Source: a candidate division FCPU426 bacterium (GTDB taxonomy: Bacteria; Oederibacteriota; Muellerivitia; Muellerivitales; Muellerivitaceae). Taken from it: DNA of 64,000 nucleotides. Made by a program: the position numbers and the translations under genes. The stretch lies in the NCBI GenBank assembly GCA_963719085.1, contig CAVRAL010000004.1, forward strand, positions 992,001-1,056,000, in the 5' to 3' direction. The notes under the pieces are model-generated. The model was not told the DNA's origin and ran no database searches. It worked only from the letters and a program-made list of their open reading frames with translations. Below are positions 17,939 to 58,286 of the stretch, piece by piece (position 1 is the first letter of the stretch; each line of letters begins with the position of its first letter).

Positions 17939-19350
17939 GAGTGCGCTCCTGTCGGATACCATCGAGTGGGATCGGGTTGTTTGGGCAGCTTGACGGTAAA
18001 CCGGGTGCCTTGTCCCAAGGCGCTTTTCACGTCCACCCCGCCGCCTAGGGCGCCGGTCAGCCCCTTCACAATGGAAAGCCCCAATCCGCTGCCTTCCCGG
18101 GTTTGAAAATCTTTGGGTTGTTTCACCCGGAAAAATTTATCGAAGATCAGTTCGTGATATTGCGGGTCAATGCCGATGCCCGTATCGCTCACTTCCAAAA
18201 TAAAATCACCGTTGGCCTCCGTCACGATCATCTCAATGACGCCGTGATCGGTGAACTTGATGGCGTTGGAAAGAAGGTTCTGCGCGATTTGCCGGAACAT
18301 GGTGACATCCGAGATTAAAGAGATGTAGGGGGCTTTTTTGGTCAAGGTGAGGGCGAGTCCCTTCGCTTGGGCTTGGGATTGATAAAGAGCGGTCAACTCA
18401 TTTAAATGTGTCATCACGTCCACCGCTTCCAAATAAGGTTCCACCTTGGCTGCCTCGATGCGGGCCACGGTTAAAAGATTGTTGATGAATCCGATGAGGT
18501 GGGTCGTGTTGTTGGAAATCATGAGCAGGTATTCACCCTGCTTGTCGGTGAGGGTGCCGCCTTTTCCATTCTGCAAAAAATTGGCGGCGCTTCGAATCGC
18601 GTGCAAAGGGGTCCCCAGGTCATGGGTGACGCCGGACACGAAATCCCTTTTCATGGCGTCCAGTTCCTTCAGTTGAAGCACCATGCCGTTGAAGTCCCGG
18701 GCCAGGTCCCCGATCTCGTCCCCGCGGGCGACTTGGACCAGCGAGTCCAGTTTTCCCTGGCGGACCAAGCGGGTGCCTTCGCTGATTTTTTTCAAAGGTT
18801 TCACCAGGGCTTTAGCGACCAGCCAAGACACCAGCCAGCCCAAGACCAAAGTAACCCCGGCCGTGAAGGCGCCTAAGCCCATCCACCGGCGCAATTGGGT
18901 TTGAATTTCTTTTTCCAGGGCTTGGGCGGAATAGCCGATCTCCACCCAACCCGCGGGGCCGTTTCCCGCCTGCACCTTTTGATAAAGAGAGGCGACCCGG
19001 GTGCCGTTGACGAGCCGGATGGATTGGGTTGATTCGGCGGCTCGGGGAGGCAGCGTGAGGGAAGGCGGCTGGATGATCCGCGAGCCCGTCACGGGATTAA
19101 AAAAAGCCGTATAAACAATGTCGGGATTTTGCGAGGCCAGGCGCATGAAATTAAGGACCGCCACATCCTCCCGTTGAAGCGCGGCTTCCCGCGCGGCCAG
19201 CGCGAAAGAGGCCAAATATTGTTTTTGGTCGGTTTCAGCTTGGTGTTTTAAAACCCAACGGGCGCCCGCGTAAAACAAGACAAAGACCGCCGCCAGCGTG
19301 AAAAGAACCAGTCCGGCGTGGCTTAAAAGAAAACGTTCCTTTAATTTCAT
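17935..19350 (-). CDS. Membrane sensor histidine kinase (2 TM, HAMP, HisKA, HATPase)
   Basis: DEIGDLARDFNGM (HAMP), THDLGTPL (H box), NLLSNAIKF, DTGIGI, GSGLGL. Confidence 0.95.
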   Translation of the reverse strand: MKLKERFLLSHAGLVLFTLAAVFVLFYAGARWVLKHQAETDQKQYLASFALAAREAALQREDVAVLNFMRLASQNPDIVYTAFFNPVTGSRIIQPPSLTLPPRAAESTQSIRLVNGTRVASLYQKVQAGNGPAGWVEIGYSAQALEKEIQTQLRRWMGLGAFTAGVTLVLGWLVSWLVAKALVKPLKKISEGTRLVRQGKLDSLVQVARGDEIGDLARDFNGMVLQLKELDAMKRDFVSGVTHDLGTPLHAIRSAANFLQNGKGGTLTDKQGEYLLMISNNTTHLIGFINNLLTVARIEAAKVEPYLEAVDVMTHLNELTALYQSQAQAKGLALTLTKKAPYISLISDVTMFRQIAQNLLSNAIKFTDHGVIEMIVTEANGDFILEVSDTGIGIDPQYHELIFDKFFRVKQPKDFQTREGSGLGLSIVKGLTGALGGGVDVKSALGQGTRFTVKLPKQPDPTRWYPTGAHS

Positions 19351-34172: not shown

Positions 34173-36002
34173 ATGAAGAACCCCGCTCCCCCCTCAAATG
34201 ATCCGCTCGAGCCCCTTCACGCGCTGCGGGCTTTTGACAGTTTTAAGCCTTTTCATTCCGTCATTCATTACTACGTCGACCTGAGTTGTTTTCTTATCCC
34301 TTCGGCGGACGCGCATGGTTGGTGGGCGTTGAACCGCCGCAAAAGACCGGTGAGCTTCGCTGAAGTTGAGACTCAGTATGGCGACGCCCGGAAACGTTAC
34401 CGGTTCATCCAGGATTGTTTTAAAAAAGTCCAATCGACGGGGCAAACGGTTTTGGGCGAGAAGTTCGGCCTGGGCGATTTTTTTGTGCCGATTTTAAAAA
34501 AGAAAAAGCTGTTGGGTTACCTTCAGGCGGGAACCTTCGCCCCCGCTGAATTGACCGAGACTTCCTTGCGGGGCTGTTGGAAAGAATTAACGGGACGGGA
34601 AGCGTCCCCGGATCTTTTCGAGTTTCGGGATTTTGTCCGGGCTATGTTGGAAATGCCGGTTTTAGACGGACCGCTTCTATCGGCTTACCGGCAATGCCTG
34701 GAAATTTTCGCCGGGATTCTGACCGGGGAACAGGAGAGTGCCCCGGCCCAGAAAAAACTTTTGGGTCTTTTGAATGAGGTTATTTCCAAAGGATTGTCCC
34801 ATAGTTATTGGATGGACTGGGCGCTGGGCCGTCCCGCCGCCGAGCCGGTTCCTTACTGGAGCCGCCGGGTGGAAGAATGGGAATGGACCCGAAATGAAAT
34901 CGGCATTTCCCGAATCCCCACAACAGTTTTCGCCCTGATGCCGCAAAGGCCGGCGGGCCGGGCCACCGATTGGACCGAGGATGTGCTTCAAATTTACCGT
35001 TTGCAGCGGCAGGCCTTTCGATTCGCCCAAACGCTGCCCCAGACCGTCGGGGGGAGGCTGGAAAATTACGGGGCGGTTTTCGTCACGTCGGCGGACCCGG
35101 ATCAGCCGAGCCTCAAGCGCCGCCGCCATATTGAGGCGGTGATTCAACGGGTCAAGCGATTCGCCGAAAATGAGCTGGGCGGTCCGGTGCGGATCGGCGT
35201 GGGGGAAACGGTGGCCCCCGGGGAATTATTGGCCGAATCCTACCGGCAAGCCGTGTTGGCGCTTCATTTGGGCCGGGGCTCACGGGAAGATGTTTTGGTT
35301 TTCGCGGATCACAAGGCTCCCGCGGCCGCGGGCGATTTTTCCCAATTCCGCCGAACCCAGAGGCAGTTAGGCGAGGCCTTTGTTTCGGCCTCGCCCGCGG
35401 AAGTGGAGGCTTTGGAAGGCCGGTTTCTCCAGGAAGCGCTTCAACTCTCTTTCCAAAATCCGTTTGAGCTGCGGCGGCATTTTCAATACGCCCTGGATCG
35501 TATGGTGGACCGGCTGGATCAGAGAATCGGGCTGGCGGAAAAAGAGGCCGCGCAACTTCGCAAAAAATGGGTGGAAGGCTTGGAAAAGACCGTGACGCTT
35601 CAGGAAATGGTGAGCCTGTTCCGGGACGCGGTGGTGGATTTTCGAAACTCCATGGATCGTCCGTCCTTATTCCGGGAATCCAAAAGTCTTGAAAAGGCCA
35701 AGGCCCATATCGACCGAAAATTCCGAGAACCCTTGCGCGCCGATCAATTGGCCGAATTGGCGGGAGTTTCTCTGTCGACTTTCAGCCGCCGTTTCAAGCG
35801 GGCCACGGGCCTGGGCATGGAGATGTATGTCCAAAACCTCCGGGTGGCGGAGGCGAAGAAACTGCTTCGTTCCACTCGCCATTCGGTGGAGCGTGTGGGG
35901 CGGGCCTGCGGATTTAAATCCTCGTCCTATTTCATCCATCTGTTCAAAAAAAAGACCGGCCTTTCCCCCGAAAGGTACCGCAACAAACCAAGCCCTATTT
36001 AA
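34173..36002 (+). CDS. AraC-family regulator with PocR-like sensor and CdaR/GGDEF-like middle domain
   Basis: 'GLGDFFVPI..LLGYLQAG' (PocR-like), 'IGVGE..LAESYRQAVLAL', and C-terminal AraC HTH 'LAELAGVS..FSRRFK..CGFKSSSYFIHLFKKKTGLSP'. Confidence 0.88.
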   Translation: MKNPAPPSNDPLEPLHALRAFDSFKPFHSVIHYYVDLSCFLIPSADAHGWWALNRRKRPVSFAEVETQYGDARKRYRFIQDCFKKVQSTGQTVLGEKFGLGDFFVPILKKKKLLGYLQAGTFAPAELTETSLRGCWKELTGREASPDLFEFRDFVRAMLEMPVLDGPLLSAYRQCLEIFAGILTGEQESAPAQKKLLGLLNEVISKGLSHSYWMDWALGRPAAEPVPYWSRRVEEWEWTRNEIGISRIPTTVFALMPQRPAGRATDWTEDVLQIYRLQRQAFRFAQTLPQTVGGRLENYGAVFVTSADPDQPSLKRRRHIEAVIQRVKRFAENELGGPVRIGVGETVAPGELLAESYRQAVLALHLGRGSREDVLVFADHKAPAAAGDFSQFRRTQRQLGEAFVSASPAEVEALEGRFLQEALQLSFQNPFELRRHFQYALDRMVDRLDQRIGLAEKEAAQLRKKWVEGLEKTVTLQEMVSLFRDAVVDFRNSMDRPSLFRESKSLEKAKAHIDRKFREPLRADQLAELAGVSLSTFSRRFKRATGLGMEMYVQNLRVAEAKKLLRSTRHSVERVGRACGFKSSSYFIHLFKKKTGLSPERYRNKPSPI

Positions 36003-39166: not shown

Positions 39167-40984
39167 GTGTCAGTGAAAAAAAACGGCGTTCTCCCCCAAG
39201 CGTTTAAAAATATTTTTGAATATGAAAGTTTCCTGACCGTCCTTCGGTACTACGTCGATTTGAACTGTTTCGTGATTTCACCGAATCCTCAGGGCCCGGG
39301 CAGCAGTTGGCTGGCGGTTCATTATCACCGGCGCTCCCATTCGCTTTTTGATTTTGAGAAAAAATACGGGTTTAAATTTAATTGGGATAAGTTGACGGAC
39401 GCGGCCTTTGAGCGAGTCCACGCGGCGGATCAGCCGCTCCTGCTGAAGTCGTTGGGGTTCTTTGATGTTTTTATGCCCGTTCGGCGCGAAGGGAAAAGAC
39501 TGGGGACGATTTTGTCGGGCGCTTTCGCGCAAGGCGAACCTACGGAAGACCTGCTGCGCGCCAGTTGGAGCGAATTGACCGGGCAAGAACTTTCGACTGA
39601 AAGTTTGGAATTCCGCCAGTTCGTCCGAGTGATGCTGGAAACCCCCGTATTAGAAGGCCCGGTGCTTTTGGCTTATCGGGAAGCGCTTGAGTTATTCGCG
39701 TCCGTGATGGCCGGAGGCGCTTCCACCTCGGTTTCCCGAAGACTGCAACAATTATTGACCGAAGTCTTCTCCAAACATCTGCCCCACAGCTATTGGATGG
39801 ATTGGGCTTTGGGCCTGCCGACGACCCAAGCCACGCCGCTTTGGAACCTGGGGGTGGAGCAAATGGACTGGGTGAAGACCGATATCGGTATTCATCGAAT
39901 CCCCACCACGGTTCTCACCGCGGTCCCGCTGGGGCTAGACGGAAAACGCCGAAATTCGGTGGGGGAAATGTTCCGGATTTACCGGTTTCAGCGCCGGGCT
40001 TTTCAATTCGCCCGCGGCCTTCCCCAAACCGTGGGCGGAAAATTGGAAAACTATGGGGCGGTGTTTGTCACCTCCGCCGATCCTTCCCTGAGCCGTCCCC
40101 AACGGCGCCGACAAATATTGGAAACCGCCGAAAAAATCCACCGGTTCGCGGTGGAAGAATTAGGCGGATCGGTTTTGGTGGGCGTTGGGGAAACCGTGCC
40201 GCCGGGAGATTCGCTGGCCGAGTCTTATCGTCAAGCGGTTCTGGCCCTGCATCTTCAAAAAGGGTTTGAGACGGGCTTGGTCTTTTTCACCCCGGGCCGC
40301 AGTGAAAAAAATGAGGGCTTGTCCGAGTTGACGCGGCTGCTTTTGGATTTGAAAAAAAGATTTGAGAGCGGCTCTTTTTACAATCTGGAAGAAATCTTGG
40401 ACGGGTTTTTAAAACAGGTTCTGCTTCTTTCCTTTCAAAACCCCGACGAGATCCGCTGGCACCTGCACTATGGGCTGCTTCAGATCGGCGAGGTGGTCAA
40501 GAGCCGGGCTGATTTGAATTGGAACGAAATGCCCCGGATGATTGAGCGGCTGATCCAAACGCTGGAAGGAGCCGCCACCACGCAGGAAATGGTTCTGGCC
40601 TTTAAAGATGGTTTGGAGCAGCTGGTGAAGCTGGCCCAAGATCCGGGGAAGATCCGGGGCTTTTACGCCTTGGATAAAGTTCGGGAACACCTGGAAAAAC
40701 ATTTCCGGACCCCGGTGAAAATCGCCAAGCTGGCGAAATTGGCGGGCGTCTCCGCGGCCACGCTTAGCCGGCGGTTCAAAAAAGCCAATGGAGTCGGCTG
40801 GGAAACTTACCTTCAAACCTTAAGGTTGAATGAGGCGCGGCGGTTGTTAAAGTCCGGAAGCCTGCCCATCGCTCAAATCGCCAAAGACTGCGGATTTAAG
40901 TCCGCGTCTTATTTCATCCGGTTGTTCCGCAAAAAAAATAGGATTTCCCCCGGGTTGTTCCGAAAAAAAGTCCAGTCGGTTTAA
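39167..40984 (+). CDS. AraC-family regulator, paralogue of 34173 gene
   Basis: Shared HSYWMDWALG, RIPTTV, LPQTVGG.LENYGAVFVTSADP and AraC HTH. Confidence 0.9.
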   Translation: MSVKKNGVLPQAFKNIFEYESFLTVLRYYVDLNCFVISPNPQGPGSSWLAVHYHRRSHSLFDFEKKYGFKFNWDKLTDAAFERVHAADQPLLLKSLGFFDVFMPVRREGKRLGTILSGAFAQGEPTEDLLRASWSELTGQELSTESLEFRQFVRVMLETPVLEGPVLLAYREALELFASVMAGGASTSVSRRLQQLLTEVFSKHLPHSYWMDWALGLPTTQATPLWNLGVEQMDWVKTDIGIHRIPTTVLTAVPLGLDGKRRNSVGEMFRIYRFQRRAFQFARGLPQTVGGKLENYGAVFVTSADPSLSRPQRRRQILETAEKIHRFAVEELGGSVLVGVGETVPPGDSLAESYRQAVLALHLQKGFETGLVFFTPGRSEKNEGLSELTRLLLDLKKRFESGSFYNLEEILDGFLKQVLLLSFQNPDEIRWHLHYGLLQIGEVVKSRADLNWNEMPRMIERLIQTLEGAATTQEMVLAFKDGLEQLVKLAQDPGKIRGFYALDKVREHLEKHFRTPVKIAKLAKLAGVSAATLSRRFKKANGVGWETYLQTLRLNEARRLLKSGSLPIAQIAKDCGFKSASYFIRLFRKKNRISPGLFRKKVQSV

Positions 40985-44712: not shown

Positions 44713-44784
44713 GGCCGCAATCCGAGTTTTATTTTTTTGAAGTTGCTGAGGGGGACCCTTGAAGGGGTCAGGAAGTTAAATCGG

Positions 44785-46887: not shown

Positions 46888-47018
46888 CCGTTGTATCGGT
46901 CAGCACGGCAAAGCTTATGCCTCGGCTTGAGGCCTCAACATAGCCAGCGCTGAGCGTTGTATCGGTCAGCACGGCAAAGCCGTGGCTCAGCTTGAAACCT
47001 CGACACAGGCAGCGCTAA
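46881..47018 (+). repeat. Array of 2 hairpin units
   Basis: GCGCTGA at 46881 (includes stop) and 46947; closed by GCGCTAA at 47012. Confidence 0.9.
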
Positions 47019-47157
47019 TTTTTTGCCGGAATCGGCTGATCTTGGCACGTTTTCCTTCATTCAGTGAAGTCTTCTTTTGGCTTTGGCCCTTCCAGTCCTA
47101 TAATTCCCTCGGTTTTAAATTTCCTGGAATATTTCGGCCCGAAAGAGGACTAAGTCA

Positions 47158-47739
47158 TTGGGAGATCCTTTGGACGAGCGGCAATTGGTTCGTCGGGTTT
47201 TAGAGGGGGACGAACGGGCCCGCATGGAGTTTTACCGGGCCTATGAACAAAAGCTTTATAGCTTTTGCGTCTATACCCTGGGACACAACGATCCTGAAAT
47301 TGAGGACATCCTTCAGGAAGTCTTCCTGGTGGCTTTTGAAAAGCTGCGGGGGTTTGAATTTAGGTCCAGCCTGGATACCTGGCTGACCCAGATTTGCATC
47401 CACAAATGCTACCGCTATTTCCGCAAGAGATCGCGCTTGGTCAGCCAAGCGGACGAGGATTTGGAAAAACTTTTACACTCCCGGGCCTTGGAAAAGGCCG
47501 ATCAGGCCGAGCGGAGCCGGGAACAAGAAGCGCGGTTGAAAATATTCCGCCAAGCCATGGACCGGATGGGGGAGCCCTGCCGGAAGATTTTGGAACTGAG
47601 AACGAGAACCGGCGCCAGCTATATCGAAATCGGGCGTCAAATGAAGATTCCCATTGGGACGGTGATGTCCCGCTTGGCGCGCTGTACGCAGACCTTGAAG
47701 GGCGAAGTGGAACGGTTGTTAAAAGAGGGGCTAAAATGA
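47158..47739 (+). CDS. ECF RNA polymerase sigma factor
   Basis: Region 2 'EDILQEVFL..F..RSSLDTWLTQI' and region 4 'SYIEIG..IPIGTVMSRLAR'. Confidence 0.93.
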   Translation: MGDPLDERQLVRRVLEGDERARMEFYRAYEQKLYSFCVYTLGHNDPEIEDILQEVFLVAFEKLRGFEFRSSLDTWLTQICIHKCYRYFRKRSRLVSQADEDLEKLLHSRALEKADQAERSREQEARLKIFRQAMDRMGEPCRKILELRTRTGASYIEIGRQMKIPIGTVMSRLARCTQTLKGEVERLLKEGLK

Positions 47740-48389
47740 CCAATTTGGTCGATGAGTTTTTTAAGCGCAACTTAAGCGAAGCCGAGTCGCAAGACTTGGA
47801 CCAATTACTGGAACAATCCCCCCAAGAGGCCGGTCGGTTCGCTGAACGGATGAAACAGGAATATTTTTCCTTGGGGTTGCCCGCGCCTCAGTTGCCCAAG
47901 CATTTGGCGCACTCGGGTTCCGCGGCGGGACTTTCACCTTTAGTGTCCACTTTGGTGGCGGGCGGCTTCCTTTCGGCGGCGGCCTTGACCTGGTGGTTTT
48001 GGCCCGAACCCAAGGCCGCGATTTTGGCGCCTTCCGCGCCGGCGCCTTTGACCGCGGCCGCCGCTCCCGCGCCTCAACCCCGAATCCTTCCGGCCCCGCC
48101 GCCTCCGGCCATTCCCCAAGCCGTGACGGGCTCCACGGAAGCGGGGAACCGCTTAAACGTGGTAGTGGACTTGGACACCCAGGCTCCGGTCAAGGTTTGC
48201 GTCTTGGACCCGAAGGATCAAACGGTGCGGGTGCTATATGAAGGAACCCTTCCCGCGGGTAAATGGTCCTTGCGCTGGGACGGAAAACTAACCGATGGGT
48301 CCCGGGCCCCGGCGGGGGATTACCGGATCGAGGTTGAGTCCGGCGCCCATCGGATGACCCGTACGGTGAGCATCGCTCCGGCCCATTAG
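47736..48389 (+). CDS. Probable single-pass anti-sigma factor with C-terminal FlgD-Ig/CTD-like domain
   Basis: ATGA overlap with the sigma stop. Short helical cytoplasmic N-terminus, TM 'LVSTLVAGGFLSAAALTWWFW', Pro/Ala stalk, then 'VRVLYEGTLPAGKWSLRWDG..DG.RAPAGDYRI'. Confidence 0.72.
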   Translation: MTNLVDEFFKRNLSEAESQDLDQLLEQSPQEAGRFAERMKQEYFSLGLPAPQLPKHLAHSGSAAGLSPLVSTLVAGGFLSAAALTWWFWPEPKAAILAPSAPAPLTAAAAPAPQPRILPAPPPPAIPQAVTGSTEAGNRLNVVVDLDTQAPVKVCVLDPKDQTVRVLYEGTLPAGKWSLRWDGKLTDGSRAPAGDYRIEVESGAHRMTRTVSIAPAH

Positions 48390-48446
48390 AACTTGTCCCG
48401 CGTGCAACCGGCTTTCCTGAGTGATATGATTTTCAGGGAGGCTTGC

Positions 48447-50327
48447 GTGCGCCCACACCTGATTTTTTATCCTAAAAAAACTTTCCCGTTCGGGGCCGTC
48501 TTATTCCTGGTTTTATTTTTGCTCGCCTCGGCCCCGTCCCGCGCGGCGGCGCCGGGTTGCATCGGCTTCGCGGCCGTGGACGGCGACGATTCTCTGGGCA
48601 TGTCGATCGCGGGGGGAACCACGGGCGGCGCCGGCGGGACCGGGGTCACGGTTTCCACTCAAACCCAGCTGGAAAACGCCCTGGACCAGTCGGGCCCGAT
48701 GACCATTTTCGTTCAAGGCCTCATCTCGTTGATCCCTTACGGCACAACCGAAAAGGTTCCCTCTAACAGGACGATTCTGGGGGTGGGATGCGGTTCGGGT
48801 ATTGTGAACGGCCCGGTGGTAATGGATGACGTTTCCAACGTCATTTTACAAAATTTGGTGCTGGGCCAAATTTATGTGCCCGGAGATCCGGCGGGAAAAT
48901 GCTGCAACTGGGATGCCATCACCATTTGGCATTCATCCCACCATGTCTGGGTGGACCATTGCGATCTTTCCCACGCGGAGGACGGTCTTTGTGACATCAC
49001 GGACAAAGCCAGCTACATTACTGTTTCCTGGTGTCATTTTCACGACCACAACAAGGCCTCGCTGGTGGGCCGCAGCGACACGGCCACTTCGGACGCCAGC
49101 TATTTAAAAGTCACCTTCCATCACAATTGGTTTGATCACTTATGGATCAACACGCCCCGGCTTCGGTTTGGGATGGTCCACCTGTTCAATAATTATTTCA
49201 CCCATGTGGCCCAATATTGCGCTTGGGACACCATGGCGGGTCAGATGGTGGTGGAATCGAATAATTTCGGCGTCAGCGCCATCAATCCTTTCGTCATCGG
49301 CACCCCAACCCCCACCTACCAACCCCAGATCGCGGCGACGCCTGGGAACAATTTGTTTGATCCCACCGCCCTGGGCTCCCAAGATACTTTTGGAGCGGCT
49401 TTTAATCCGGCGACTTTTTATTCCTATGTTCCCGACAGCGCCTCGGCGGTGCCGACCCTGGTGCCGCCGGACGTCGGCCCCTGCCTGCCTACGCCGATTC
49501 CGACGCCCGTGCCCACGGTGGGGGCGGTTTGGCGGGTGGTGGCGGGCGGGCCCGCTTTCACCGACAGTCTGGGAAACTTTTGGTCGGCGGATGTCCAGTA
49601 CAGCGGCGGCTACGCTTTCGCCGTGACAACGGCGGCGTCCATCTCCGCCACTTCGGACCCGGGGCTTTATCAAACCGAGCGTTACGGCGATCTCTTCAAC
49701 ACGAACGACTTCACCTACAATTTTCCCGTGCCGCCGGGAAATTACCAAGTGACGCTGAAGTTCGCCGAAACCGACTTTACGGGTCCCGATCAGCGGATCT
49801 TTAATGTCGCGCTCAACGGCGTCCCGGTCTTGTCGAACTTTGACTTGGCGGCGGACGCCGGGGCGCCCAATAAAGCCGACGATAAAGTTTTTAATAATGT
49901 GGCCCCGGTGGGAGGCCTGATCACGGTTCAATTCACCGCGGGAAATCTGGACAGCCCCAAAGTGAACGCGCTTCAAATTGTTCCCCAGCCGCCCACGCCG
50001 ACCCCCACGCCTTATTTAACGCCCACCCCTACCCCGACGCCCCCGGCGCCCAATGGGAAGCCTTATGTTTATTCCAACCCCTCCAGCGGGCCCACGGTCC
50101 GGTTTGTCTACACGATGCAAGAAAACGGCACCGCCCACATAAGGGTTTGGAACGCCTCGGGCCAATTTGTGGCCGGGTTGGCCGACGCCCAGACCGTTGG
50201 TGTCCAGCAAAGCACGCTGGACATCCAAGCCTTCGCGCCGGGGCATTATTTTTATCAGGTCGATTTAAAATATGACTCGGGCCGGGAACAGCGCTTTGAT
50301 CCTGAGGTTTTGGCGGTTAAAAAATAA
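48447..50327 (+). CDS. Secreted PL1-fold protein (catalytic Arg apparently absent) + malectin + divergent CTD
   Basis: GTG start after GGAGG. Motifs TTGGAGG, WDAI, VWVDHC, DGLCDI, TFHHNWF, and NTPRLR in place of RxPxxR. Malectin 'LYQTERYG..VTLKFAE..RIFNV'. Confidence 0.85.
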   Translation: MRPHLIFYPKKTFPFGAVLFLVLFLLASAPSRAAAPGCIGFAAVDGDDSLGMSIAGGTTGGAGGTGVTVSTQTQLENALDQSGPMTIFVQGLISLIPYGTTEKVPSNRTILGVGCGSGIVNGPVVMDDVSNVILQNLVLGQIYVPGDPAGKCCNWDAITIWHSSHHVWVDHCDLSHAEDGLCDITDKASYITVSWCHFHDHNKASLVGRSDTATSDASYLKVTFHHNWFDHLWINTPRLRFGMVHLFNNYFTHVAQYCAWDTMAGQMVVESNNFGVSAINPFVIGTPTPTYQPQIAATPGNNLFDPTALGSQDTFGAAFNPATFYSYVPDSASAVPTLVPPDVGPCLPTPIPTPVPTVGAVWRVVAGGPAFTDSLGNFWSADVQYSGGYAFAVTTAASISATSDPGLYQTERYGDLFNTNDFTYNFPVPPGNYQVTLKFAETDFTGPDQRIFNVALNGVPVLSNFDLAADAGAPNKADDKVFNNVAPVGGLITVQFTAGNLDSPKVNALQIVPQPPTPTPTPYLTPTPTPTPPAPNGKPYVYSNPSSGPTVRFVYTMQENGTAHIRVWNASGQFVAGLADAQTVGVQQSTLDIQAFAPGHYFYQVDLKYDSGREQRFDPEVLAVKK

Positions 50328-50329
50328 AA

Positions 50330-51670
50330 ATGCGAGACGATCCTTTTTTCCCGCCGTTTCGCGCCAAGTTTTTTTGGGCGCCGTTTTTTAGACATGGGTT
50401 GATCGGTTTGTTGTGGCTCGCCGGTTTTTTAATCGGGCCTGGAGGCACGGGCGCGCAAACGGTGACCTCGGCGGCTGGGCTGGCGGACCCCTTGGAAAAT
50501 CTTCAGGGATCGGCCCGCGACCTTTCCTTGGGTTCGGCCTTTGTGGGCGTGGCCGATGACAGCTCGGCGCTTTTTTTTAATAGCGCGGGGCTTTCGGATT
50601 TAAGCCGGCCCGAGGTGGCGCTTCACCACAACAGTTACTTGGCGGGATCCTTTCAAGAAACCTTGACCGCCGGTTTCCCCGCGGGCGACCTGGGCGGCTT
50701 GGCCTTCGCCCTGGATTACGTCAATTGGGGAACCATCGATCTTCGGGATAATTTCGGCGCCTCCCAGGGCGACTTTAACGACAGCGATGTGGGTTTCACG
50801 GCGGGATGGGGAAGGGAATGGATGCCGGGATTTTCGGCCGGAATCGCCTTGCGGGCGTTGCAGCAAAAAGTGGTGAACGATCTTTACACCAGCCTGGCGG
50901 CGGATTTGGGATTGTTGTGGACGGTGGACCCGGGTTGGAAGCTCGGGCTTTCTTACCTGAATCTGGGAACGCCCGTGGGCGGAAGCGCCCTGACCCAAGA
51001 GATCAGATTGGGCGGTTCTTTTTTCACGGCGATAAACCCGCGCTTTACCTTACTCACCGCGATTTCGGGTTCCTATGTTCCCAATGGGCCGGGTGGGATG
51101 CAGGCGGGTTTGGAAGGGGTTTTAGACCATCAATGGGCTTTGCGGGTGGGATATCAAATTCCTTTTTACGACAATCAAGTCAGCGGGTTCTCCAATTTTA
51201 CCGCCGGGGCCGGCGTCAAGTTTTCCTCGTTGTCCTTGGATTACGCTTATTTGCCTTTCGGGAACTTGGGGATCTCCAACCGCGTCAGTCTTTCTTATCA
51301 GTTCGATTTACCCAAACAAATGGTTCAAGTGCCCGTCACGGTGATCGTGCAAGCGCCCCAACCGGCGGAGGCTTCGAAAGAGGTTGACCTGGAATTCAAA
51401 ATTCAAACCCCGCCGTCCGATCCGGTGACCGAAGGCCTGGCCTTGGAAAAGCAGGGTCAAGATACCCAAGCGGCGCAAACTTACGTGAAGGCCCTCCAGA
51501 CGGACCCGGACAATGACCGGCTTTGGAACGCTTTGGGCCGCCTTTATTACCGATTGGGGCAAAAAACCTACGCGATTCAATGCTTTGAGAAGGTTCTCCA
51601 GCTGGAGCCGAATAATCAAGCCCTTCAAAAATGGCTGGATCAATATAAAGCCCCGCCTTCGACCCCTTAA
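50330..51670 (+). CDS. PorV-family outer-membrane beta-barrel with C-terminal TPR
   Basis: 'SARDLSLGSAFVGVADDSSALFFNSAGL', 'AADLGLL', 'LDYAYLPFGNLGISNRVSLSYQF', followed by TPR 'LWNALGRLYYRLGQ..AIQCFEKVLQLEP'. Confidence 0.82.
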   Translation: MRDDPFFPPFRAKFFWAPFFRHGLIGLLWLAGFLIGPGGTGAQTVTSAAGLADPLENLQGSARDLSLGSAFVGVADDSSALFFNSAGLSDLSRPEVALHHNSYLAGSFQETLTAGFPAGDLGGLAFALDYVNWGTIDLRDNFGASQGDFNDSDVGFTAGWGREWMPGFSAGIALRALQQKVVNDLYTSLAADLGLLWTVDPGWKLGLSYLNLGTPVGGSALTQEIRLGGSFFTAINPRFTLLTAISGSYVPNGPGGMQAGLEGVLDHQWALRVGYQIPFYDNQVSGFSNFTAGAGVKFSSLSLDYAYLPFGNLGISNRVSLSYQFDLPKQMVQVPVTVIVQAPQPAEASKEVDLEFKIQTPPSDPVTEGLALEKQGQDTQAAQTYVKALQTDPDNDRLWNALGRLYYRLGQKTYAIQCFEKVLQLEPNNQALQKWLDQYKAPPSTP

Positions 51671-51807
51671 AACAATCGGTTAAACGGTTCTCCTTAGACT
51701 TCCCTCTAAAAAACTTAAAATGGAATAAAGCCGCCTCCCGGTGAATCTAAGCCTTTGGGACAACTTGTCCTGAACCGCTTTGAAGAGCGGGATCCCCGAG
51801 GTGGAAA

Positions 51808-54207
51808 ATGCCGGAATCGATCATCTTTTTGTTTTTACGGTTTAAATCGTTTTTAAAAAGCTTCCGCCACATTTCCTTGCCTTTAGCCGGACTTTTTTTT
51901 CTCCCCGCCGCGACCGTCTTCGGCCAAACCCTGATCATTACCGCCGCTCCTTATAACGCCACCACGGGCAGCGCCGACAACGCCGCCGCGATCCAAGCCG
52001 CCATCAACGCCGTGGGCAGCGGCGGCACGGTTGAGGTTCCCGCGGGTAATTTTTTAAGCGGTCCCGTGACCCTTAAAAGCAACATGACCTTTCAGCTTTC
52101 GGCCGGAGCCACCCTTCAAATGACGGCCATGGGGACCTTTCCTGTAAATATGGATTTCATTTACGGTTCCAAACTCTCCAATATTACGATCAACGGCTCC
52201 GGCGTCATGGATGGGCAGGGATTGGCCTGGTGGAATTATTTCAACGGCGGTGGAACGGATAACCGCCCGCCCGCCATGATTGAGCTCACCGGTTGCACGG
52301 GCGTGACGGTTTCCGGCATTTCGGTCATCAATTCGCCCAAATTTCATGTTCAGTTTCTGGGCAACGGCGCCAACATCCTGGCCTCGGGCCTGACCATCAC
52401 CGCTCCCTGGCCCTCGCCCAATACGGACGGCATCGACCTGCGGGGAACCAATGTCACGATTCAAAACTGCTACATCAGCGACGGGGACGATGTGATTCAA
52501 ATCGGCGGCTCCAACGCCTGCATGGGAATTACGGTGCAAGGCTGCACCTTCGGAACCGGACACGGTCTTTCCATCGGCAGCATCACCTCAGGCGGCGTAA
52601 GCAACGTGCTCGTCAACAATTGCGTTTTTAACGGCACCCAATATGGCCTCCGGCTGAAATCCAACAATACCGAAGGCGGAATTACCTCCAACGTCACTTA
52701 TTCCAACATCACCATGACCAATATTTTGGTGAACCCTATCTTGATGTACAGCTATTACCCGGATGTTCCCGCCAATCCCACCACGGATACGGGTTCGGCC
52801 GCCAACAGCACCACGCCTTATTGGCAAAATATTAAATTTGAAAATGTGTCGGCGGCCCAAACCGCCACCGGGTCGGCCAACGTGGGCATCCTTTGGGGAT
52901 TGCCCCAAGCGCCGGTTTCCAATGTGCTTTTTGACGCCTGCACCATCACGGGTTCCAAAATTATGGATGTGTTCAACACCCGGGGCGTGACGTTTGATTG
53001 CAACTGCCTGATCAATGGCAAGGCTCCCTCAAACTCCGCGGCCGTTACGACTTATAACGCGGCCATGGCGGGGGCTGACAACGTGCTTTTTGCCGCTTGC
53101 GGCCCCACGCCGACCTTTACAGCGACTTCGGTCCTAGCCACCCCGACCCGCACCGCCACGCCCTTACCGACCGCTTCCGCGACGCGCACGGCGACGCCAA
53201 CCGCGACCCGGACAGCCTCTCCGACCGCTTCCCCTACGAGGACGATGACCGCTACCGCGACTGCCTCGGCGACAGCGACGCGTACCGCGACGGCCCCCGC
53301 CACTCCAACCCTTACGGCCACGGTTCTTTCGACGGTTTCCGCTACGCCGACCCGCACCGCGACGGCAACCTCTTCCGCGACCGCTACAGCGAGCATGACC
53401 CGGACGGCGACCTTGGTTTTTACAAGAACTTCGACACCGACCCTGGCCATGACTTCTACACCGACCATGACCCGAACCTCGACGCCGTCTCTTACAGCGA
53501 CTCCACTCTCGACTCAAACCCCCACGGGCACTAGTACGCCATCCTTCACCGCGACCAAGACGGCCACCCCGGCGTTCACTTCGACGTCAACGTCCACCGC
53601 TTCGAACACGTCCACGCCGACCGCGACCCCTACGTCAACACCAACCTCGGTATTCACCCCAACCGCGACTCCCTCCAGGACGGCGACCTTGATCCCGACC
53701 GCCTCGGCGTCGGCCACGGCTTCGTCAACGGCCACGCCTTCCGCGACTTTAACCCCCATCCCAACCGCTTCTTTTACGGACACACCGACGAACTCTTTTA
53801 CACCCACACTCACCTTGACGGTAACGCCGGTGCCGCCCACTCCCACCCCGAGCGACACGGTCACCTTGACCCCGGTGATTGTGCCCACATCAACCGACAC
53901 CCCGACCTTCGGGCCGGGAGCGCCGCCTATTTCCAAACCGGTGCCTTTCCCCAACCCGACCCAGGGGGGGACGGTTCAAATTTATTTTGTCTTGGCCGCC
54001 GCGTCCTCGGATGTGAGGATCCATGTTTTCACCACGGCCTTTAGAAAAGTAATCACGGCCGACTTAGGCCCGCTTCCCGCCGGCGCCAGCACACCCACCC
54101 TTTCCCTGACGGACGCACAAGGCCGGCCTTTGGCCAATGGTCTTTACTATGTCGAAGTCTCTGATTCTCAAGGGCATTCCATCGGCAAGCTGATGGTTTT
54201 GCGCTGA
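51808..54207 (+). CDS. Secreted GH28 polygalacturonase + Thr/Pro linker + CTD
   Basis: All four GH28 motifs are present: NTDG, GDD, GHG, RLK. Confidence 0.93.
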   Translation: MPESIIFLFLRFKSFLKSFRHISLPLAGLFFLPAATVFGQTLIITAAPYNATTGSADNAAAIQAAINAVGSGGTVEVPAGNFLSGPVTLKSNMTFQLSAGATLQMTAMGTFPVNMDFIYGSKLSNITINGSGVMDGQGLAWWNYFNGGGTDNRPPAMIELTGCTGVTVSGISVINSPKFHVQFLGNGANILASGLTITAPWPSPNTDGIDLRGTNVTIQNCYISDGDDVIQIGGSNACMGITVQGCTFGTGHGLSIGSITSGGVSNVLVNNCVFNGTQYGLRLKSNNTEGGITSNVTYSNITMTNILVNPILMYSYYPDVPANPTTDTGSAANSTTPYWQNIKFENVSAAQTATGSANVGILWGLPQAPVSNVLFDACTITGSKIMDVFNTRGVTFDCNCLINGKAPSNSAAVTTYNAAMAGADNVLFAACGPTPTFTATSVLATPTRTATPLPTASATRTATPTATRTASPTASPTRTMTATATASATATRTATAPATPTLTATVLSTVSATPTRTATATSSATATASMTRTATLVFTRTSTPTLAMTSTPTMTRTSTPSLTATPLSTQTPTGTSTPSFTATKTATPAFTSTSTSTASNTSTPTATPTSTPTSVFTPTATPSRTATLIPTASASATASSTATPSATLTPIPTASFTDTPTNSFTPTLTLTVTPVPPTPTPSDTVTLTPVIVPTSTDTPTFGPGAPPISKPVPFPNPTQGGTVQIYFVLAAASSDVRIHVFTTAFRKVITADLGPLPAGASTPTLSLTDAQGRPLANGLYYVEVSDSQGHSIGKLMVLR

Positions 54208-54291: not shown

Positions 54292-57171
54292 GTGAAGATT
54301 CTCCCGTTAAATTTATTCTCCCCGCGAGTGGGGGGTGTCATTCTTTTTTGGGCGATGACGCCCCTGGCCGCTTGGGCCTGGGTCAATCCCAGTTTTGAAA
54401 CGGGAAGCTTGACCGGCTGGACCACCAATACGGCCAGCGGAGGCGGGCTTGCCTGTGGAAACCCCACGGCTTCCATTGTGAATGTGGGGGGCGGCTCCGC
54501 GCCAGATTCAGTGGGCCCTTTAACTCCCGCGGGGCTTCCTTTGGTGGGGGCCGGCAACGGCAACTACGCGGTCCAGGTTTTTTCGTCCCGGGGAGATCCC
54601 AACTTTGGCGATTGGGCCCAGGTTTGGCAAACCGATACCGTGCCCTCCGGCGGAACCTCCTGCTGTCTTTCCTTTTATATTGCCGCCATTCTGGAAGACT
54701 ATCATTACACCCAGGAACAAGACACTTTCGGGGACGCTTATATAGAAGCTGATGTGGTTGTCGGCGGCGGCACGGCGGGCGCCGGCGGCGTGACGGTGGC
54801 CAGTCTGCGTTATGGCTGGGGTTACGACGTAGGTACCGGCCTTTTGCAGGCCACCGGACAAAATGGTCCAGGGACCTATTCAACTTGTACCGTTTCCCAA
54901 ACGCCTTCCCCGAATTGGGGGTTCATTCCCTGGACTCAGCAAACAGTCAATCTTTGCGCTTACGCCGGCCAAAAGGTCACCTTGTTGGTGACGGCGTTTG
55001 ACTGCGACGGGGACGGCCATTACAGCTTGGGTTATTTGGACAACGTAAGTTGGAACACTTGCGTGCCGCCCCAGTTTAATTTGGTGAAATCCGTCAGTCC
55101 TTCGGGAGACGCCAATCCGGGGGATACCTTGACCTATACCCTCGCCTACTCCAACCCGAGCGCGGTGCCCATCGACGGGGTTCAAATCTGCGACACGATT
55201 CCGACCGACGTGAAGCTTTTGACCGACACGATCGCGGCCAATCCGCCCGAGGGAGCGGTGACCTGGACAGGCACCGGCGCGGGCGACATCTTGTGTTGGG
55301 ATTTGGGATATATCGGCCCCCATGTCAATGGCACGCTTTCTTTCGCGGTGAGCGTCCAAAAACCCTGCAACACCATTATCAATCAAGCGGAGGAGACGGA
55401 CGCCGAGACCGCCGGCCTTCAGTCCAACGCCGTTACCAATGACGTGGCCAGTTGCACGCCTACCAAGACCCCTAAAACGACGCCCACCTTTACCCCTACC
55501 CTGAGCCCCACGCTTTCGCCGACCTTAACGAAAACTTTTACTTGGACCCCCACCCGAACCTTTACCCCCACTTTCACCCCGACCAATACCCCAACGCCCA
55601 GTCCTACGACGACAGTTACCCTGACTCCGACCAAGACTCCGACGCCGACGAATAGTTGGACGGCGACACCCACTAAGACCCCAACGCCGACCCTCAGTCC
55701 GACCCCGTCTCCGACGGTCACCTTGACTGACACACCGAGTCCGACCGCGACTTTGTCTTCCACCTGGACCCCGACCCGAACGCCGACGAATACTCCGACC
55801 GTTTCGGCGTCGGCTACGCCTTCCGCCACTTCGACGGCAACCCATACGCCAACCGTCACCCCGACGGTGACCCCTACCATGACCGGAACGCCGCCTATTA
55901 CTCCTACGGCAACGCCATCCCCGACACTGACTTGGACGCCTACTCCCACGTTTACATTGACCGCGACCCCAACGCCTTCGCCTACGGCGACCCCGACCGC
56001 TAGTGCGACGCCAACCCCGTCGCCGACTTGGACACCCACCGACACTCCGACCATCACGCCGGTGTTCACGCTGACGCCCATGCCGACCCCGACCGTGACA
56101 CTGACGGCCTCGCCCACCCCTACCTTTTCGCCGACCTTAACCTGGACTCCCACCTTCACAGCCACTTTTTCCCCGACGAGGACATGGACCATGACGCCAA
56201 CTCAGACACCGACCTGTACTTTTACGCCCACCCCCACAGTGACGCTTTCGCCGACCGCCACGCTTACCCCCGCGCCCTCGGGAAGTTTCACTGTGACGGT
56301 CGGGATCTATAACGAGGCCGGGGAACTGATAAAGCAAGTCCAGGTGGGGAACGCTTTTTCGGCGGTTCAGGTTTTGCTTCTGTCCACCCAAGTGATCGAC
56401 AGCCTCAGCCAGCCTCTCACGATTAATTATGGAGGCGGATCCGCCGCCAGTTGGGACGGGACCGGGCAAAATGGCGACCCGGTTTCCAATGGACAATATT
56501 ATGTCAAGGTCGACAGCGCGGACCCGAGCGGCAATGTCACCAGCGTGACCCAGCCGATCTTGGTCAACCGGTCCCTGGCCCAGTTCACCTTGAACATTTA
56601 CAACGAGTCCGGCGAAGTCGTGCGGCATATCCTGGCCATTGTCCAAGACGCGGGGGAGAGTGTGGCCCATTCGCTGTCGCTGTCTTCCAATGTGTTGAGC
56701 CCGGCTTCCGGCGGGAACTCGGCGGCGGTGACTATCCTGGCCGATGGCCAAGTAATCGCCACTTGGAACGGCTCGTCCGATAACGGCACTTTGGTTTCCA
56801 GCGGCACTTACTTTATTTCAGCGCATGAACTGGACGGAAAAGGGAACGAGGCCAATATTACAAATACGATCGTCGTGTTAGGTTCCGGGTCTTTGCCCAA
56901 TATTCAGGCGCGGGCGGTTCCCAACTTGATTCGGGGAGCCGGCGGCACCGTCTTTGAGGCGGCGTCGACCCAAGCCCTTACCTTAAAAGCAACGCTTTAT
57001 GATTTGGCGGGGGAAAAGGTGGCTTTTCGGCAAGGGCCGCCGGGCGCGGACCAGGTGGGCTGGGACGCTTCCCAAGCGTCCAGCGGAATTTATTTGGCGG
57101 TGGTGGAAATTTGGACGGCGGACGGCCAATTGGCCCGCCGCCAAACGCTTCGGATCGCGGTGGTGCATTAG
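54292..57171 (+). CDS. Secreted protein: unknown Cys-rich N-domain + DUF11 + Thr/Pro linker + two FlgD-Ig-like domains + CTD
   Basis: GTG start after GGAGG. DUF11 'LVKSVS..PGDTLTYTL.YSN..DTIP', two copies of 'IYNE.GE..W.G..NG..VS.G.Y', final 'LYDLAGEKV..WD..SSGIYL'. Confidence 0.75.
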   Translation: MKILPLNLFSPRVGGVILFWAMTPLAAWAWVNPSFETGSLTGWTTNTASGGGLACGNPTASIVNVGGGSAPDSVGPLTPAGLPLVGAGNGNYAVQVFSSRGDPNFGDWAQVWQTDTVPSGGTSCCLSFYIAAILEDYHYTQEQDTFGDAYIEADVVVGGGTAGAGGVTVASLRYGWGYDVGTGLLQATGQNGPGTYSTCTVSQTPSPNWGFIPWTQQTVNLCAYAGQKVTLLVTAFDCDGDGHYSLGYLDNVSWNTCVPPQFNLVKSVSPSGDANPGDTLTYTLAYSNPSAVPIDGVQICDTIPTDVKLLTDTIAANPPEGAVTWTGTGAGDILCWDLGYIGPHVNGTLSFAVSVQKPCNTIINQAEETDAETAGLQSNAVTNDVASCTPTKTPKTTPTFTPTLSPTLSPTLTKTFTWTPTRTFTPTFTPTNTPTPSPTTTVTLTPTKTPTPTNSWTATPTKTPTPTLSPTPSPTVTLTDTPSPTATLSSTWTPTRTPTNTPTVSASATPSATSTATHTPTVTPTVTPTMTGTPPITPTATPSPTLTWTPTPTFTLTATPTPSPTATPTASATPTPSPTWTPTDTPTITPVFTLTPMPTPTVTLTASPTPTFSPTLTWTPTFTATFSPTRTWTMTPTQTPTCTFTPTPTVTLSPTATLTPAPSGSFTVTVGIYNEAGELIKQVQVGNAFSAVQVLLLSTQVIDSLSQPLTINYGGGSAASWDGTGQNGDPVSNGQYYVKVDSADPSGNVTSVTQPILVNRSLAQFTLNIYNESGEVVRHILAIVQDAGESVAHSLSLSSNVLSPASGGNSAAVTILADGQVIATWNGSSDNGTLVSSGTYFISAHELDGKGNEANITNTIVVLGSGSLPNIQARAVPNLIRGAGGTVFEAASTQALTLKATLYDLAGEKVAFRQGPPGADQVGWDASQASSGIYLAVVEIWTADGQLARRQTLRIAVVH

Positions 57172-57257
57172 CCGTTTTTTATGACGGTAGAAGCCGCGGC
57201 GTCTTAAAAGACCCGCTTGTGGGCCTTTCGTTGAAGCGGTATAGTAAGAACCTGCCC

Positions 57258-58286
57258 ATGAAAAACGTAACTATCCAAGATATTGCCGAGCGCGCCGGGG
57301 TGACCAAAGCCACGGTTTCCATGGTGATCAACCAGGACCATCGGATCACGGAAAAAACCCGCGACAAGGTCTTGAAGATCATCAAGGAGATGAACTATTA
57401 CCCCAATCAGTCCGCGCGGAAACTCGCCCGGGGGAAAAGCGACGTTATCGCTTTCGTGTCGGCCCGTTTTGCCGCGCCTTTTATCGCCTCGGTCATGGAC
57501 GCCTTTGAGCAGCGGGCTTTTCAAATGGGGCGGTATGTCCACGGCATCCATCCTTATTCCACCCAGCATAAAACCGAGGCCAAGGAAGAGCTGCTCCAGC
57601 AAATCCTTTATGGCCGCACCGCCGACGCGGTCGTGGTGGTGACGATCCGCCCCAGTCAAAAAGTCGTCGACGAATACGCCGCCCGGAAAATCCCGTTGAT
57701 CCTTTTAGAAAACACTTTGCCGGGAAGCCACAGCATCCGGGTGGACAATGTGAAAGGCGGCTTAATCGCCACCGAGTACCTGATTCAAAAGGGGCGTAAA
57801 AGAATTGGATTGATTAACGGCGAAACCCAGCCGCCACCGGGCGTGGATGTGGTTCCCTCGGCGGTGGAGCGGTTGGAAGGCTACCGGCAGGCTTTGAAAA
57901 ACAAAGGTCTTGATTACACCGAAAACCGCGTGGTCGCTTACGGCAATTATTTATTTGAGGAAGGGCGGATGGGATTGAAGACCCTTCTGGAAAAAGACCC
58001 CAAACTGGACGCCATCTTTTGCGCGGCGGGGGACATTATGGCCATGGGCGTCATGGCGGAAGCCCAGGCCCGCGGCATCCGAATTCCGGAAGACCTCGCG
58101 CTGGTGGGCTATGACGACATGCCGGCTTCCAGCCTTTTAAAGCCGGCCCTGACCACCGTTCATCAACCGCTCGCCCAGATGGGAGTACAGGCTTTTGAGA
58201 CCGCCATTGACGCCATTGACGGTAAATTACCCCAAGACCGCAATATCCTGATGCAACCCGAACTCATTGTTCGGGAGTCAGCCTAG
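57258..58286 (+). CDS. LacI-family transcriptional regulator
   Basis: MKNVTIQDIAERAGVTKATVSMVIN HTH, and IPEDLALVGYDD..PALTTVHQP. Start reassigned to ATG 57258. Confidence 0.95.
   Translation: MKNVTIQDIAERAGVTKATVSMVINQDHRITEKTRDKVLKIIKEMNYYPNQSARKLARGKSDVIAFVSARFAAPFIASVMDAFEQRAFQMGRYVHGIHPYSTQHKTEAKEELLQQILYGRTADAVVVVTIRPSQKVVDEYAARKIPLILLENTLPGSHSIRVDNVKGGLIATEYLIQKGRKRIGLINGETQPPPGVDVVPSAVERLEGYRQALKNKGLDYTENRVVAYGNYLFEEGRMGLKTLLEKDPKLDAIFCAAGDIMAMGVMAEAQARGIRIPEDLALVGYDDMPASSLLKPALTTVHQPLAQMGVQAFETAIDAIDGKLPQDRNILMQPELIVRESA

Follow-up and report, generated by a model that had tools for sequence, protein, structure and literature searches.

A conserved gene cassette with a TPR-tailed PorV-family barrel as a candidate trans-envelope sigma-factor switch for plant-polymer enzymes

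Introduction

In the RsgI/SigI systems of cellulolytic clostridia, a genome has several paralogous sigma/anti-sigma pairs, and each pair is linked with a carbohydrate-binding module (CBM) and with cognate glycoside hydrolase genes; RsgI itself carries the CBM, in a Gram-positive envelope. In FecA-FecR-FecI and in the SusC-like/anti-sigma/extracytoplasmic function (ECF) sigma pairs of Bacteroides polysaccharide utilization loci, an outer-membrane protein reports its external ligand to a single-pass anti-sigma factor, and the ECF sigma factor is freed to act on cognate genes of uptake or degradation. Here, a four-gene cassette of a candidate division FCPU426 bacterium is described, for which a similar logic is proposed. 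The cassette was found at positions 47158–51670 of a 64,000-nucleotide stretch of DNA, hereafter the window (GenBank assembly GCA_963719085.1, contig CAVRAL010000004.1, positions 992,001 to 1,056,000). It encodes a sigma factor, an anti-sigma factor, a secreted pectate lyase-malectin protein with a type IX secretion system (T9SS) sorting tail, and a PorV-family outer-membrane barrel with a tetratricopeptide repeat (TPR) tail. The cassette is real and conserved, and as a variant of sigma-factor control across the envelope it has apparently not been described; its relay mechanism is put forward as a proposal.

The closest known system is PorA-PorV-PorY/PorX-SigP of Porphyromonas gingivalis. In two reports (PMC7712824; PMC12152298), PorA is a small, lectin-like protein whose type A tail binds PorV, and downstream of the tagged protein come an inner-membrane sensor and an ECF sigma factor, which is autoregulated. 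In P. gingivalis the genes are dispersed, the PorV is a general one that lacks a TPR tail and is dispensable for signaling, the sensor is a kinase acting on SigP via PorX, and the regulon is the T9SS itself. The cassette, in contrast, is compact. Its barrel-TPR paralogue is a dedicated one, its transducer is a direct anti-sigma factor (in a sibling module, a histidine kinase with a response regulator), its glycan-binding or enzymatic domains are swappable, and its apparent targets are genes of carbohydrate-active enzymes.

An earlier reading of the locus from the sequence alone (the original prediction) had likened it to FecA/FecR/FecI and RsgI/SigI; the signaling logic is indeed alike, but the defining features of both systems are missing. 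The barrel is of the 14-strand PorV/FadL type and not a 22-strand TonB-dependent transducer with an N-terminal signaling domain. Its C-terminal TPR would be the periplasmic element, the anti-sigma factor bears an FlgD-type immunoglobulin-like (Ig) domain, and ligand binding is assigned to a separate secreted protein. None of the four proteins matched a TonB-dependent receptor, STN or FecR family, which places them outside FecA/FecR/FecI. They differ from RsgI/SigI in that FlgD_ig is the only outer domain of the anti-sigma factor; malectin, PA14 and CBM9 are found on a separate protein, which is tail-tagged and would lie beyond the outer membrane with the barrel in between.

Among the barrel-tail pairs of the T9SS, PorP is reportedly paired with a C-terminal domain (CTD) of type B. 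The T9SS carrier and anchor barrels (SprA-PorV, 6h3i and 8gl6; PorQ-PorZ) likewise pair a PorV-family barrel with a tail protein, but in none of all these pairs does the barrel have a TPR tail in the periplasm or sigma and anti-sigma genes alongside, and neither PorU nor GldKLM was detected in the genome that carries the cassette. The original prediction knew of no description of such a locus. The layout of sigma, anti-sigma, tagged cargo and PorV-TPR genes was likewise not found in the full-text literature outside subscription-only papers; PorA-PorV-PorXY-SigP is nevertheless a published precedent for a lectin-like protein with a sorting tail that feeds into an inner-membrane sensor and an ECF sigma factor (PMC7712824, PMC12152298).

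Results

Gene content of the cassette

The sigma gene (47171–47739, forward strand; open reading frame (ORF) listed from 47158) probably starts at the TTG at 47171, after GGGAG. This start was taken from the upstream alignment of 33 related sigma genes, in which a GGAG-type ribosome site and TTG are conserved. The product of about 190 amino acids (aa) contains regions 2 and 4 only (Sigma70_r2, 45.9 bits; r4, 27.3 bits; no r3) and passes the ECF superfamily model TIGR02937 with 89.5 bits (cut-off 42.9); it is an ECF (group 4) sigma-70 factor.

The stop of the sigma gene overlaps the next gene (47736–48389, forward strand) in an ATGA. The encoded protein is read as a cytoplasmic N-terminus of about 55 aa, a transmembrane helix (the single hydrophobic helix, at about residues 66–88), a Pro/Ala linker of about 45 residues and a C-terminal FlgD-type Ig domain (FlgD_ig at 134–202). 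The arrangement is kept in 21 aligned homologues, with conservation of the N-terminal ~50 residues. Encoded directly downstream of the sigma gene, coupled to it and spanning the membrane once, the protein is assigned as a single-pass anti-sigma factor by these sequence features. Apart from FlgD_ig, only a sub-threshold match to DUF2271 was obtained. The Ig domain was modeled as a six-strand sandwich (pLDDT 80), and its closest solved folds in Foldseek were FlgD hook-cap Ig domains (E 2e-4), followed at lower rank by the T9SS tails of PorZ, RgpB and NucA (E 5e-3 to 2e-2). For this family, the idea that the domain was copied from the cargo tail was rejected: hhalign gave a probability of 13% over 31 columns, BLASTP against the tail of the downstream GH28 protein gave E 0.05, and FlgD came first in Foldseek. 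At locus L038 of another genome (G055), the anti-sigma gene of an otherwise intact cassette (9653–10363) is broken by one in-frame TGA, reflecting either a pseudogene or a sequencing error.

The third gene (48426–50327, forward strand; ORF listed from 48393) likely begins at the ATG at 48426, from which the product has a signal peptide. A PL1 pectate lyase domain (Pectate_lyase_4, PF00544, 125.4 bits) is followed by malectin (90 bits) and by a module-specific sorting tail, which scored 28.0 bits with TIGR04183 (cut-off 23) and 22.6 bits with Pfam Por_Secre_tail PF18962, under its cut-off of 27. By the TIGR04183 match, the protein is predicted to carry a T9SS type A sorting domain.

The fourth gene (50330–51670, forward strand) encodes a 446-aa protein with a 14-strand outer-membrane barrel, a disordered linker of about 35 aa and a five-helix TPR tail (TPR at 365–440). 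It scored 118.7 bits with the PorV/PorQ family model NF033709 (cut-off 90) and 43.8 bits with the PorV equivalog NF033710; since the cut-off of the latter (250) is not reached, the protein is regarded as a paralogue and not as the PorV shuttle itself. In an AlphaFold model built from a 22-sequence alignment (mean pLDDT 73), an N-terminal helical segment precedes 14 long strands (95–324), the disordered linker (330–361) and five very confident helices (365–440). The best solved matches in Foldseek were the PorV chains 8gl6_F (E 5e-13) and 6h3i_F (E 1e-11) of SprA-PorV complexes, with TM scores of 0.61–0.62 on the target, and FadL-type channels came next. Family score and modeled fold together assign the barrel to the PorV/PorQ family. 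Because the number of strands is even, the topology would leave the TPR tail in the periplasm.

No convincing intrinsic terminator was found between the four genes, where counts were at shuffle level. A GH28 polygalacturonase with a Thr/Pro-rich linker and an FlgD_ig-type C-terminal tail, the proposed regulon target, is encoded 137 bases after the barrel gene (51808–54207, forward strand). The original prediction had placed a four-gene module directly upstream of GH28, with sigma and anti-sigma genes overlapping in ATGA and a PorV-like barrel with TPR 2 bp after the cargo stop, and all of this was found.

The cargo had, however, been taken for a probable pseudo-lyase, and this claim did not survive the comparison with a characterized PL1 enzyme. 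Residues 71–270 align to Thermotoga PelA (3zsc) with 149 bits. The PelA motifs NWDAITI, VWVDHCD, EDGLCDIT, HNKASLVG and TPRLRFG are all kept. Identical to PelA are D174, D197/D201, K221 and R256/R258, which we take to be the calcium-binding Asp residues, the Lys and the catalytic Arg. Since every catalytic and calcium-site motif is retained, "pseudo-lyase" is unsupported and the domain looks catalytically intact. A cargo that merely binds glycan would resemble the equivalent protein of other modules, which has binding-type domains only (PA14-CBM9, LamG/DUF11 or NHL); given the identity of the Asp, Lys and Arg motifs with those of PelA, we consider it very improbable here.

Conservation of the cassette

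Searches across genomes and metagenome loci were used for conservation; a single-protein scan of the genome contigs gave one relative only. Of the 30 other family genomes, 30 had full-length homologues of the anti-sigma factor. Outside the family it was mostly the Ig part alone that matched (73 of 99 phylum genomes, counting the genome of the window). Forty regions, 20 surrounding the best anti-sigma matches and 20 surrounding weaker matches, were fetched and mapped with profiles from the first batch; with the three modules of the window's own genome included, the set came to 44 anti-sigma modules.

A barrel-TPR gene was found in the cluster in 37 of the 44 modules, and three more are cut by contig ends (L053, L058, L066). 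In 31 of the 37, the immediate neighbor of the barrel is a protein with the module-type tail. Since 25 of these tails had served to build the tail profile, its independent matches are those in L001, L053–L055, L057, L062, L063, L068 and L072, the last of which comes from a second family of the phylum. Three gene orders were seen: sigma/anti-sigma/cargo/barrel, sigma/anti-sigma/barrel/cargo and cargo/barrel/sigma/anti-sigma. The own genome has two paralogous modules, L002 with sigma, anti-sigma, PA14-CBM9 and barrel-TPR genes followed by GH62 and GH30 enzymes, and L001 with a 405-aa tail protein, barrel-TPR, sigma and anti-sigma. The layout first read from one locus is thus conserved across the family genomes, and by these comparisons it is not due to chance.

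In 40 metagenome loci of at least 7 kb, TPR-tailed barrels adjoined a sigma/anti-sigma pair or a kinase in 11 of 14 uncut cases (L163 and L164 among the 11, at only 25% identity) and TPR-less barrels did so in 2–3 of about 18, figures that are descriptive only because the sequences are kin. Look-alike barrel-TPR clusters in the ESM Atlas were commonest in Elusimicrobiota, Zixibacteria and Eisenbacteria, which is taken as a lead only.

The same outer-membrane pair with other transducers

The window holds a sibling module on the reverse strand (15798–21197), whose genes overlap one another. It consists of a 616-aa PorV-family barrel with a long TPR tail (19347–21197), a histidine kinase with two transmembrane helices, a periplasmic domain of about 130 aa, HAMP, HisKA and HATPase (17935–19350), an OmpR-type response regulator (17252–17962) and a PA14-CBM9 protein with a C-terminal Ig-like tail (15798–17255). 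The cassette mirrors this module with sigma and anti-sigma factors in place of kinase and response regulator, as had been proposed. Homologues of the kinase's periplasmic sensor domain occur in 17 of 30 other family genomes. Of 14 kinase loci fetched, 12 have a barrel with a long TPR tail immediately before the kinase (L073 and L075 were ambiguous) and 10 have a tail protein immediately before the barrel; an ORF of about 230 aa follows. The barrel-TPR proteins measure 585–657 aa in kinase modules vs 422–525 aa in most sigma modules. A third kind of transducer beside the outer-membrane pair was found elsewhere in the own genome (L008:6789-15379, corresponding to G000:C5:217789-226379, both on the minus strand), where a 1426-aa FlgD_ig-tailed protein, a 543-aa barrel-TPR protein and an 891-aa transducer with HATPase_c_2, sCache, HAMP, SpoIIE and helix-turn-helix (HTH) domains are encoded in a row.

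These arrangements bear on an explanation that does without a relay, in which barrel and tagged protein are products of the sigma regulon, serving as an export or anchoring pair for the pectin enzyme, and the Ig domain of the anti-sigma factor senses some other cue, for instance a soluble sugar or stress on the envelope. Targets of an ECF sigma factor are often found in its own operon, cargo-barrel pairs without regulators are common (the sedolisin pair of L004; many pairs of a large protein and a barrel in the metagenome loci), and the apparently intact PL1 catalytic motifs would suit an enzyme in its own right. Against this explanation, barrel-TPR genes accompany sigma/anti-sigma in 37 of 44 modules whatever the cargo, tail-only proteins included, the pair of barrel and tagged protein recurs with kinases and with the SpoIIE-type protein, and TPR tails are mostly confined to barrels beside transducers. 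We judge it improbable.

In the L004 pair (L004:8672-12429, minus strand), a sedolisin-type peptidase gene with a sorting tail overlaps by 4 bp the gene of a PorV-like barrel of 430 aa with no TPR match; there is no sigma switch, and a histidine-kinase-like gene is convergent.

Variable cargo domains on a constant tail

The domains of the tagged protein vary together with the neighboring enzymes. Downstream of PA14-CBM9 modules, GH30 was found in 10 of 12 loci (L002 also has GH62); the exceptions are L055 with GH44 and L050 with a malectin-CBM3 protein without a catalytic family match. PL4 rhamnogalacturonan-lyase domains follow LamG/DUF11 modules in 5 of 6 cases, and GH28 follows PL1-malectin modules in 2 of 2. 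NHL-propeller cargo was found in L064, L067 and L071, and tail-only proteins of 119–146 aa lie beside the barrel in L059, L065 and L070. Because NHL and tail-only cargo exist, the design is not restricted to glycans, and the tail-only modules are hard to explain other than by signaling. The original prediction had proposed a general design of a dedicated barrel, a non-catalytic glycan-binding cargo and an inner-membrane transducer. Barrel, tail-tagged protein and transducer do recur in the synteny of the family; the description of the cargo has to be given up, as the PL1 motifs are intact and the cargo is not always glycan-binding.

Over the last ~90 residues, the PL1-malectin, PA14-CBM9 and LamG/DUF11 proteins share 52–73% identity, their other domains being unrelated. 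For NHL and tail-only proteins the identity is 31–42%, and for the tail of the PA14-CBM9 protein of the kinase module only 18%. The whole PL1-malectin-tail protein occurs in just 2 of 31 genomes, the own genome and G070 (72% identity); its tail alone matches cargo proteins of about 480 aa in many genomes at 51–71%. The cassette is nearest to the LamG/DUF11 type, with identities of 47–56% for the anti-sigma factor and 58–64% for the barrel. As the tail is alike across unrelated domains and the whole protein is rare, the sensor part appears to be swapped on a constant tail, and the PL1-malectin part seems to have been swapped in recently, with tail, barrel and switch staying constant. Downstream of the GH28 gene (54292–57171), the window encodes a 959-aa protein with several FlgD_ig/CHU_C-like stretches, a weak sorting tail and no catalytic family, which the module tail profile also matches.

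The constancy of the tail is at the center of the main rival explanation, which is drawn by analogy from PorA. Here, the tail itself, while still in the periplasm, would be what the Ig domain of the anti-sigma factor (or the sensor domain of the kinase) binds as its ligand, the barrel would serve as a sink that takes the tail away, and the cassette would report export flux or barrel occupancy and not the external glycan directly. In P. gingivalis, the PorA CTD binds PorY in the periplasm and activates PorXY-SigP, and PorA tethered to the inner membrane still works, PorV being dispensable (PMC12152298; PMC7712824). The strong conservation of the tail across cargo types and the tail-only proteins of 119–146 aa adjoining the barrel in some modules fit this explanation as well. 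It leaves two things unexplained, the match between variable domains and downstream enzyme families, and the TPR tail of the barrel, whose size goes with the type of transducer; moreover, the Ig domain of the anti-sigma factor was not copied from the cargo tail (hhalign 13%; T9SS tails below FlgD). We regard this explanation as rather unlikely.

Promoter-like motifs before sigma and enzyme genes

An ECF-type promoter-like motif, GGAATA-N18-CTAA, precedes the sigma gene (47126–47153, forward strand), and a second one, GGAATA-N19-CTAA, lies in the 137-base gap between the barrel and GH28 genes (51722–51750, forward strand). The second site also occurs in the orthologous locus L039, which has the motif at both equivalent positions, and in 6 other modules; its -10 part resembles the sigma promoter of the same locus. 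For counting, the motif was defined as GGAATA, 17–19 bases and CT[AC]A, and 33 sigma genes were listed by hand, with most barrel-preceded sigma genes left out. The strict motif was found upstream of 22 of the 33 sigma genes of related modules, nearly always 14–15 bases before the start codon. The 64-kb window contains 2 matches vs 0.34 expected. Across 42 loci (728,615 bases) there were 37 matches, compared with 3, 10, 8, 8 and 1 in five mononucleotide shuffles. When the 37 were sorted by hand, 21 lay before sigma genes, 7 directly after the barrel/cargo pair and before the next enzyme gene (L039, L043, L044, L048, L049, L055, L062), 2 at a greater distance downstream, on the same strand, and the remaining 7 at other places, a number close to the shuffle level. 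Locus L002 has a one-base variant of the motif before GH62. As the second motif precedes enzyme genes, which is the main evidence, the regulon is taken to include the adjacent enzyme genes, and there are good grounds, by sequence, to expect that the cassette governs cognate plant-polymer enzymes.

A genome-wide scan gave 25 matches, mostly inside ORFs and about as many as by chance. Two intergenic matches were considered as promoters and treated as chance: C4:288968 has no same-strand gene downstream, and C4:1167853 adjoins an FAD-oxidoreductase ORF on the opposite strand. A motif resembling the L002 sigma promoter (GGAATAAAGG...GGCTAA) was observed in the own genome (G000:C5:114719-114747, minus strand), 76 nt before a GH94 cellobiose/cellodextrin phosphorylase gene (L167:700-3144, minus strand), which may be a distant regulon member of the xylan/cellulose-type cassette. 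A sigma-70-like site, TTGGCT-16-TATAAT, was also seen before the sigma gene (47077–47104, forward strand; 10/12 matches). Since such sites occur at chance level in the region, it is weak, and only its position is suggestive.

Proposed relay and the points against it

On balance, it is somewhat probable that the four genes form a co-transcribed cell-surface signaling cassette that controls cognate glycan-degrading genes through a relay via the barrel and its TPR tail. In this model, the FlgD-type Ig domain of the anti-sigma factor would be held out in the periplasm on its Pro/Ala linker of ~45 residues. The tail-tagged PL1-malectin protein, which would bind and cleave pectin, would be exported via a SprA-type translocon, and its own barrel would retain it at the surface by way of the tail, much as PorV does with CTD cargo. 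When the surface protein meets pectin, the state of barrel and TPR would change, and the TPR tail, or the tail-tagged protein itself, would act on the anti-sigma Ig domain so that sigma is freed. Free sigma could then transcribe its own operon from GGAATA-N18-CTAA at 47126–47153 and the GH28 gene from the second motif copy at 51722–51750. The analysis bears out the gene content, the folds, the conserved synteny, the swappable sensor domains that match the enzymes downstream and the shared promoter-like motifs; which proteins touch one another, which way the signal runs and what induces it are inferred. A relay from the surface to the anti-sigma factor via barrel and TPR is favored because the variable domains match the regulated enzymes, because TPR tails accompany transducers with a size that varies with the transducer type, and because tail-only modules make little sense as enzyme export units.

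Several observations weigh against this model. In P. gingivalis, the one case studied, tail-bearing PorA still signals in porV mutants, at odds with a barrel-mediated relay (PMC12152298). Four of the 44 modules (L051, L052, L057, L060) have no barrel match, although 3 of these 4 have a TPR protein nearby. With its PL1 domain apparently intact, the "sensor" could be simply an enzyme with its own export helper. The N-terminus of the anti-sigma factor matched no Pfam or NCBIfam anti-sigma family (zf-HC2, RskA or FecR type) at E <= 0.01, and it is from its position, the gene overlap and its topology that the role is assigned. The loci used to derive the promoter pattern are also those in which it was counted, and 6 of 100 shuffles of the window gave at least 2 matches; for these reasons, the promoter argument rests on the positions of the matches. 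For the export and holding of the cargo, PorU was not found in the 99%-complete genome (NF033707 matched tail regions only), nor were GldK, GldL and GldM with TIGR03517, TIGR03513 and TIGR03525, where for GldL and GldM the result means only not found with these models, which matched no control either.

Export machinery and genomic context

The genome belongs to an uncultured soil or peat bacterium (3.04 Mb, 5 contigs, 99% complete) and contains 22 PorV-family matches, 17 sigma-70 region 2 matches and many tail-bearing proteins. A SprA/Sov translocon was found as a 1948-aa protein (L011:5518-11364, minus strand; TIGR04189, 231.8 bits, cut-off 200), and a plain 322-aa PorV (PF19572) is encoded elsewhere. 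The genome may thus have SprA-based export without the known motor and sortase. Plain barrels of 312–335 aa elsewhere in the genome stand without regulators, and so do fusions of a PorV-family barrel with FlgD_ig and an OmpA peptidoglycan-binding domain (L005:8663-10438, L006:17530-19887, L007:8078-10117). The L007 fusion barrel also has TPR, and next to it are encoded a protein with a CHU_C tail and a GAF sigma-54 activator.

Secreted enzymes of glycan degradation form an island in the window (GH8, GH5, PL4, GH30, CE4, GH28 and CBM3 proteins). Two proteins of about 605 aa (34173–36002 and 39167–40984) end in an AraC-type HTH, and their long N-terminal parts matched no family; both genes lie among PL4 and GH30 genes, and a LacI-type repressor is encoded at 57111–58286. 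As the AraC-type pair and the LacI-type repressor are present, several regulatory systems seem to act on the island. A hairpin-containing repeat of about 66 nt (core ...GTTGTATCGGTCAGCACGGCAAAGC) has 4 copies in the genome, all intergenic and all within the window: at 39036 (before the AraC-type gene at 39167), at 44649 (before the CE4 gene at 44737), and in tandem at 46890 and 46956, a short way upstream of the sigma promoter. The repeat might act locally as a terminator or operator, or be a repetitive extragenic palindromic (REP)-like element.

Discussion

A broader interpretation is also offered, tentatively and as a possibility that falls somewhat short of probable. TPR-tailed PorV barrels might act as a general outer-membrane signaling adaptor, holding a tail-tagged surface protein with a freely swapped ligand-binding part (lectin, lyase, propeller or nothing) and coupling it to the inner-membrane transducer encoded next door (anti-sigma factor, histidine kinase or SpoIIE-type phosphatase). 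Such adaptors would form a third trans-envelope class beside TonB-dependent transducers and lipoprotein sensors of the Rcs/Cpx type, spread in Elusimicrobiota-like and other uncultured phyla and working with a SprA that lacks the known PorKLMN motor and PorU.

If the relay via barrel and TPR is true, it would be a new way for bacteria without SusC/SusD-type or TonB-dependent sensors to detect insoluble plant polymers outside the outer membrane. The proposed sensor set is plug-and-play, with a specificity that may be read from the sequence, as xylan-, rhamnogalacturonan- and homogalacturonan-type modules stand beside matching enzymes. It would extend the PorA-PorY finding from one dispersed circuit to a large, genetically compact family, in which it becomes testable which of three parts gives the signal: sorting tail, barrel or surface domain. 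The triplets of sigma factor, anti-sigma factor and promoter could serve as orthogonal glycan-responsive switches and would allow regulon prediction in uncultured peat and soil degraders.

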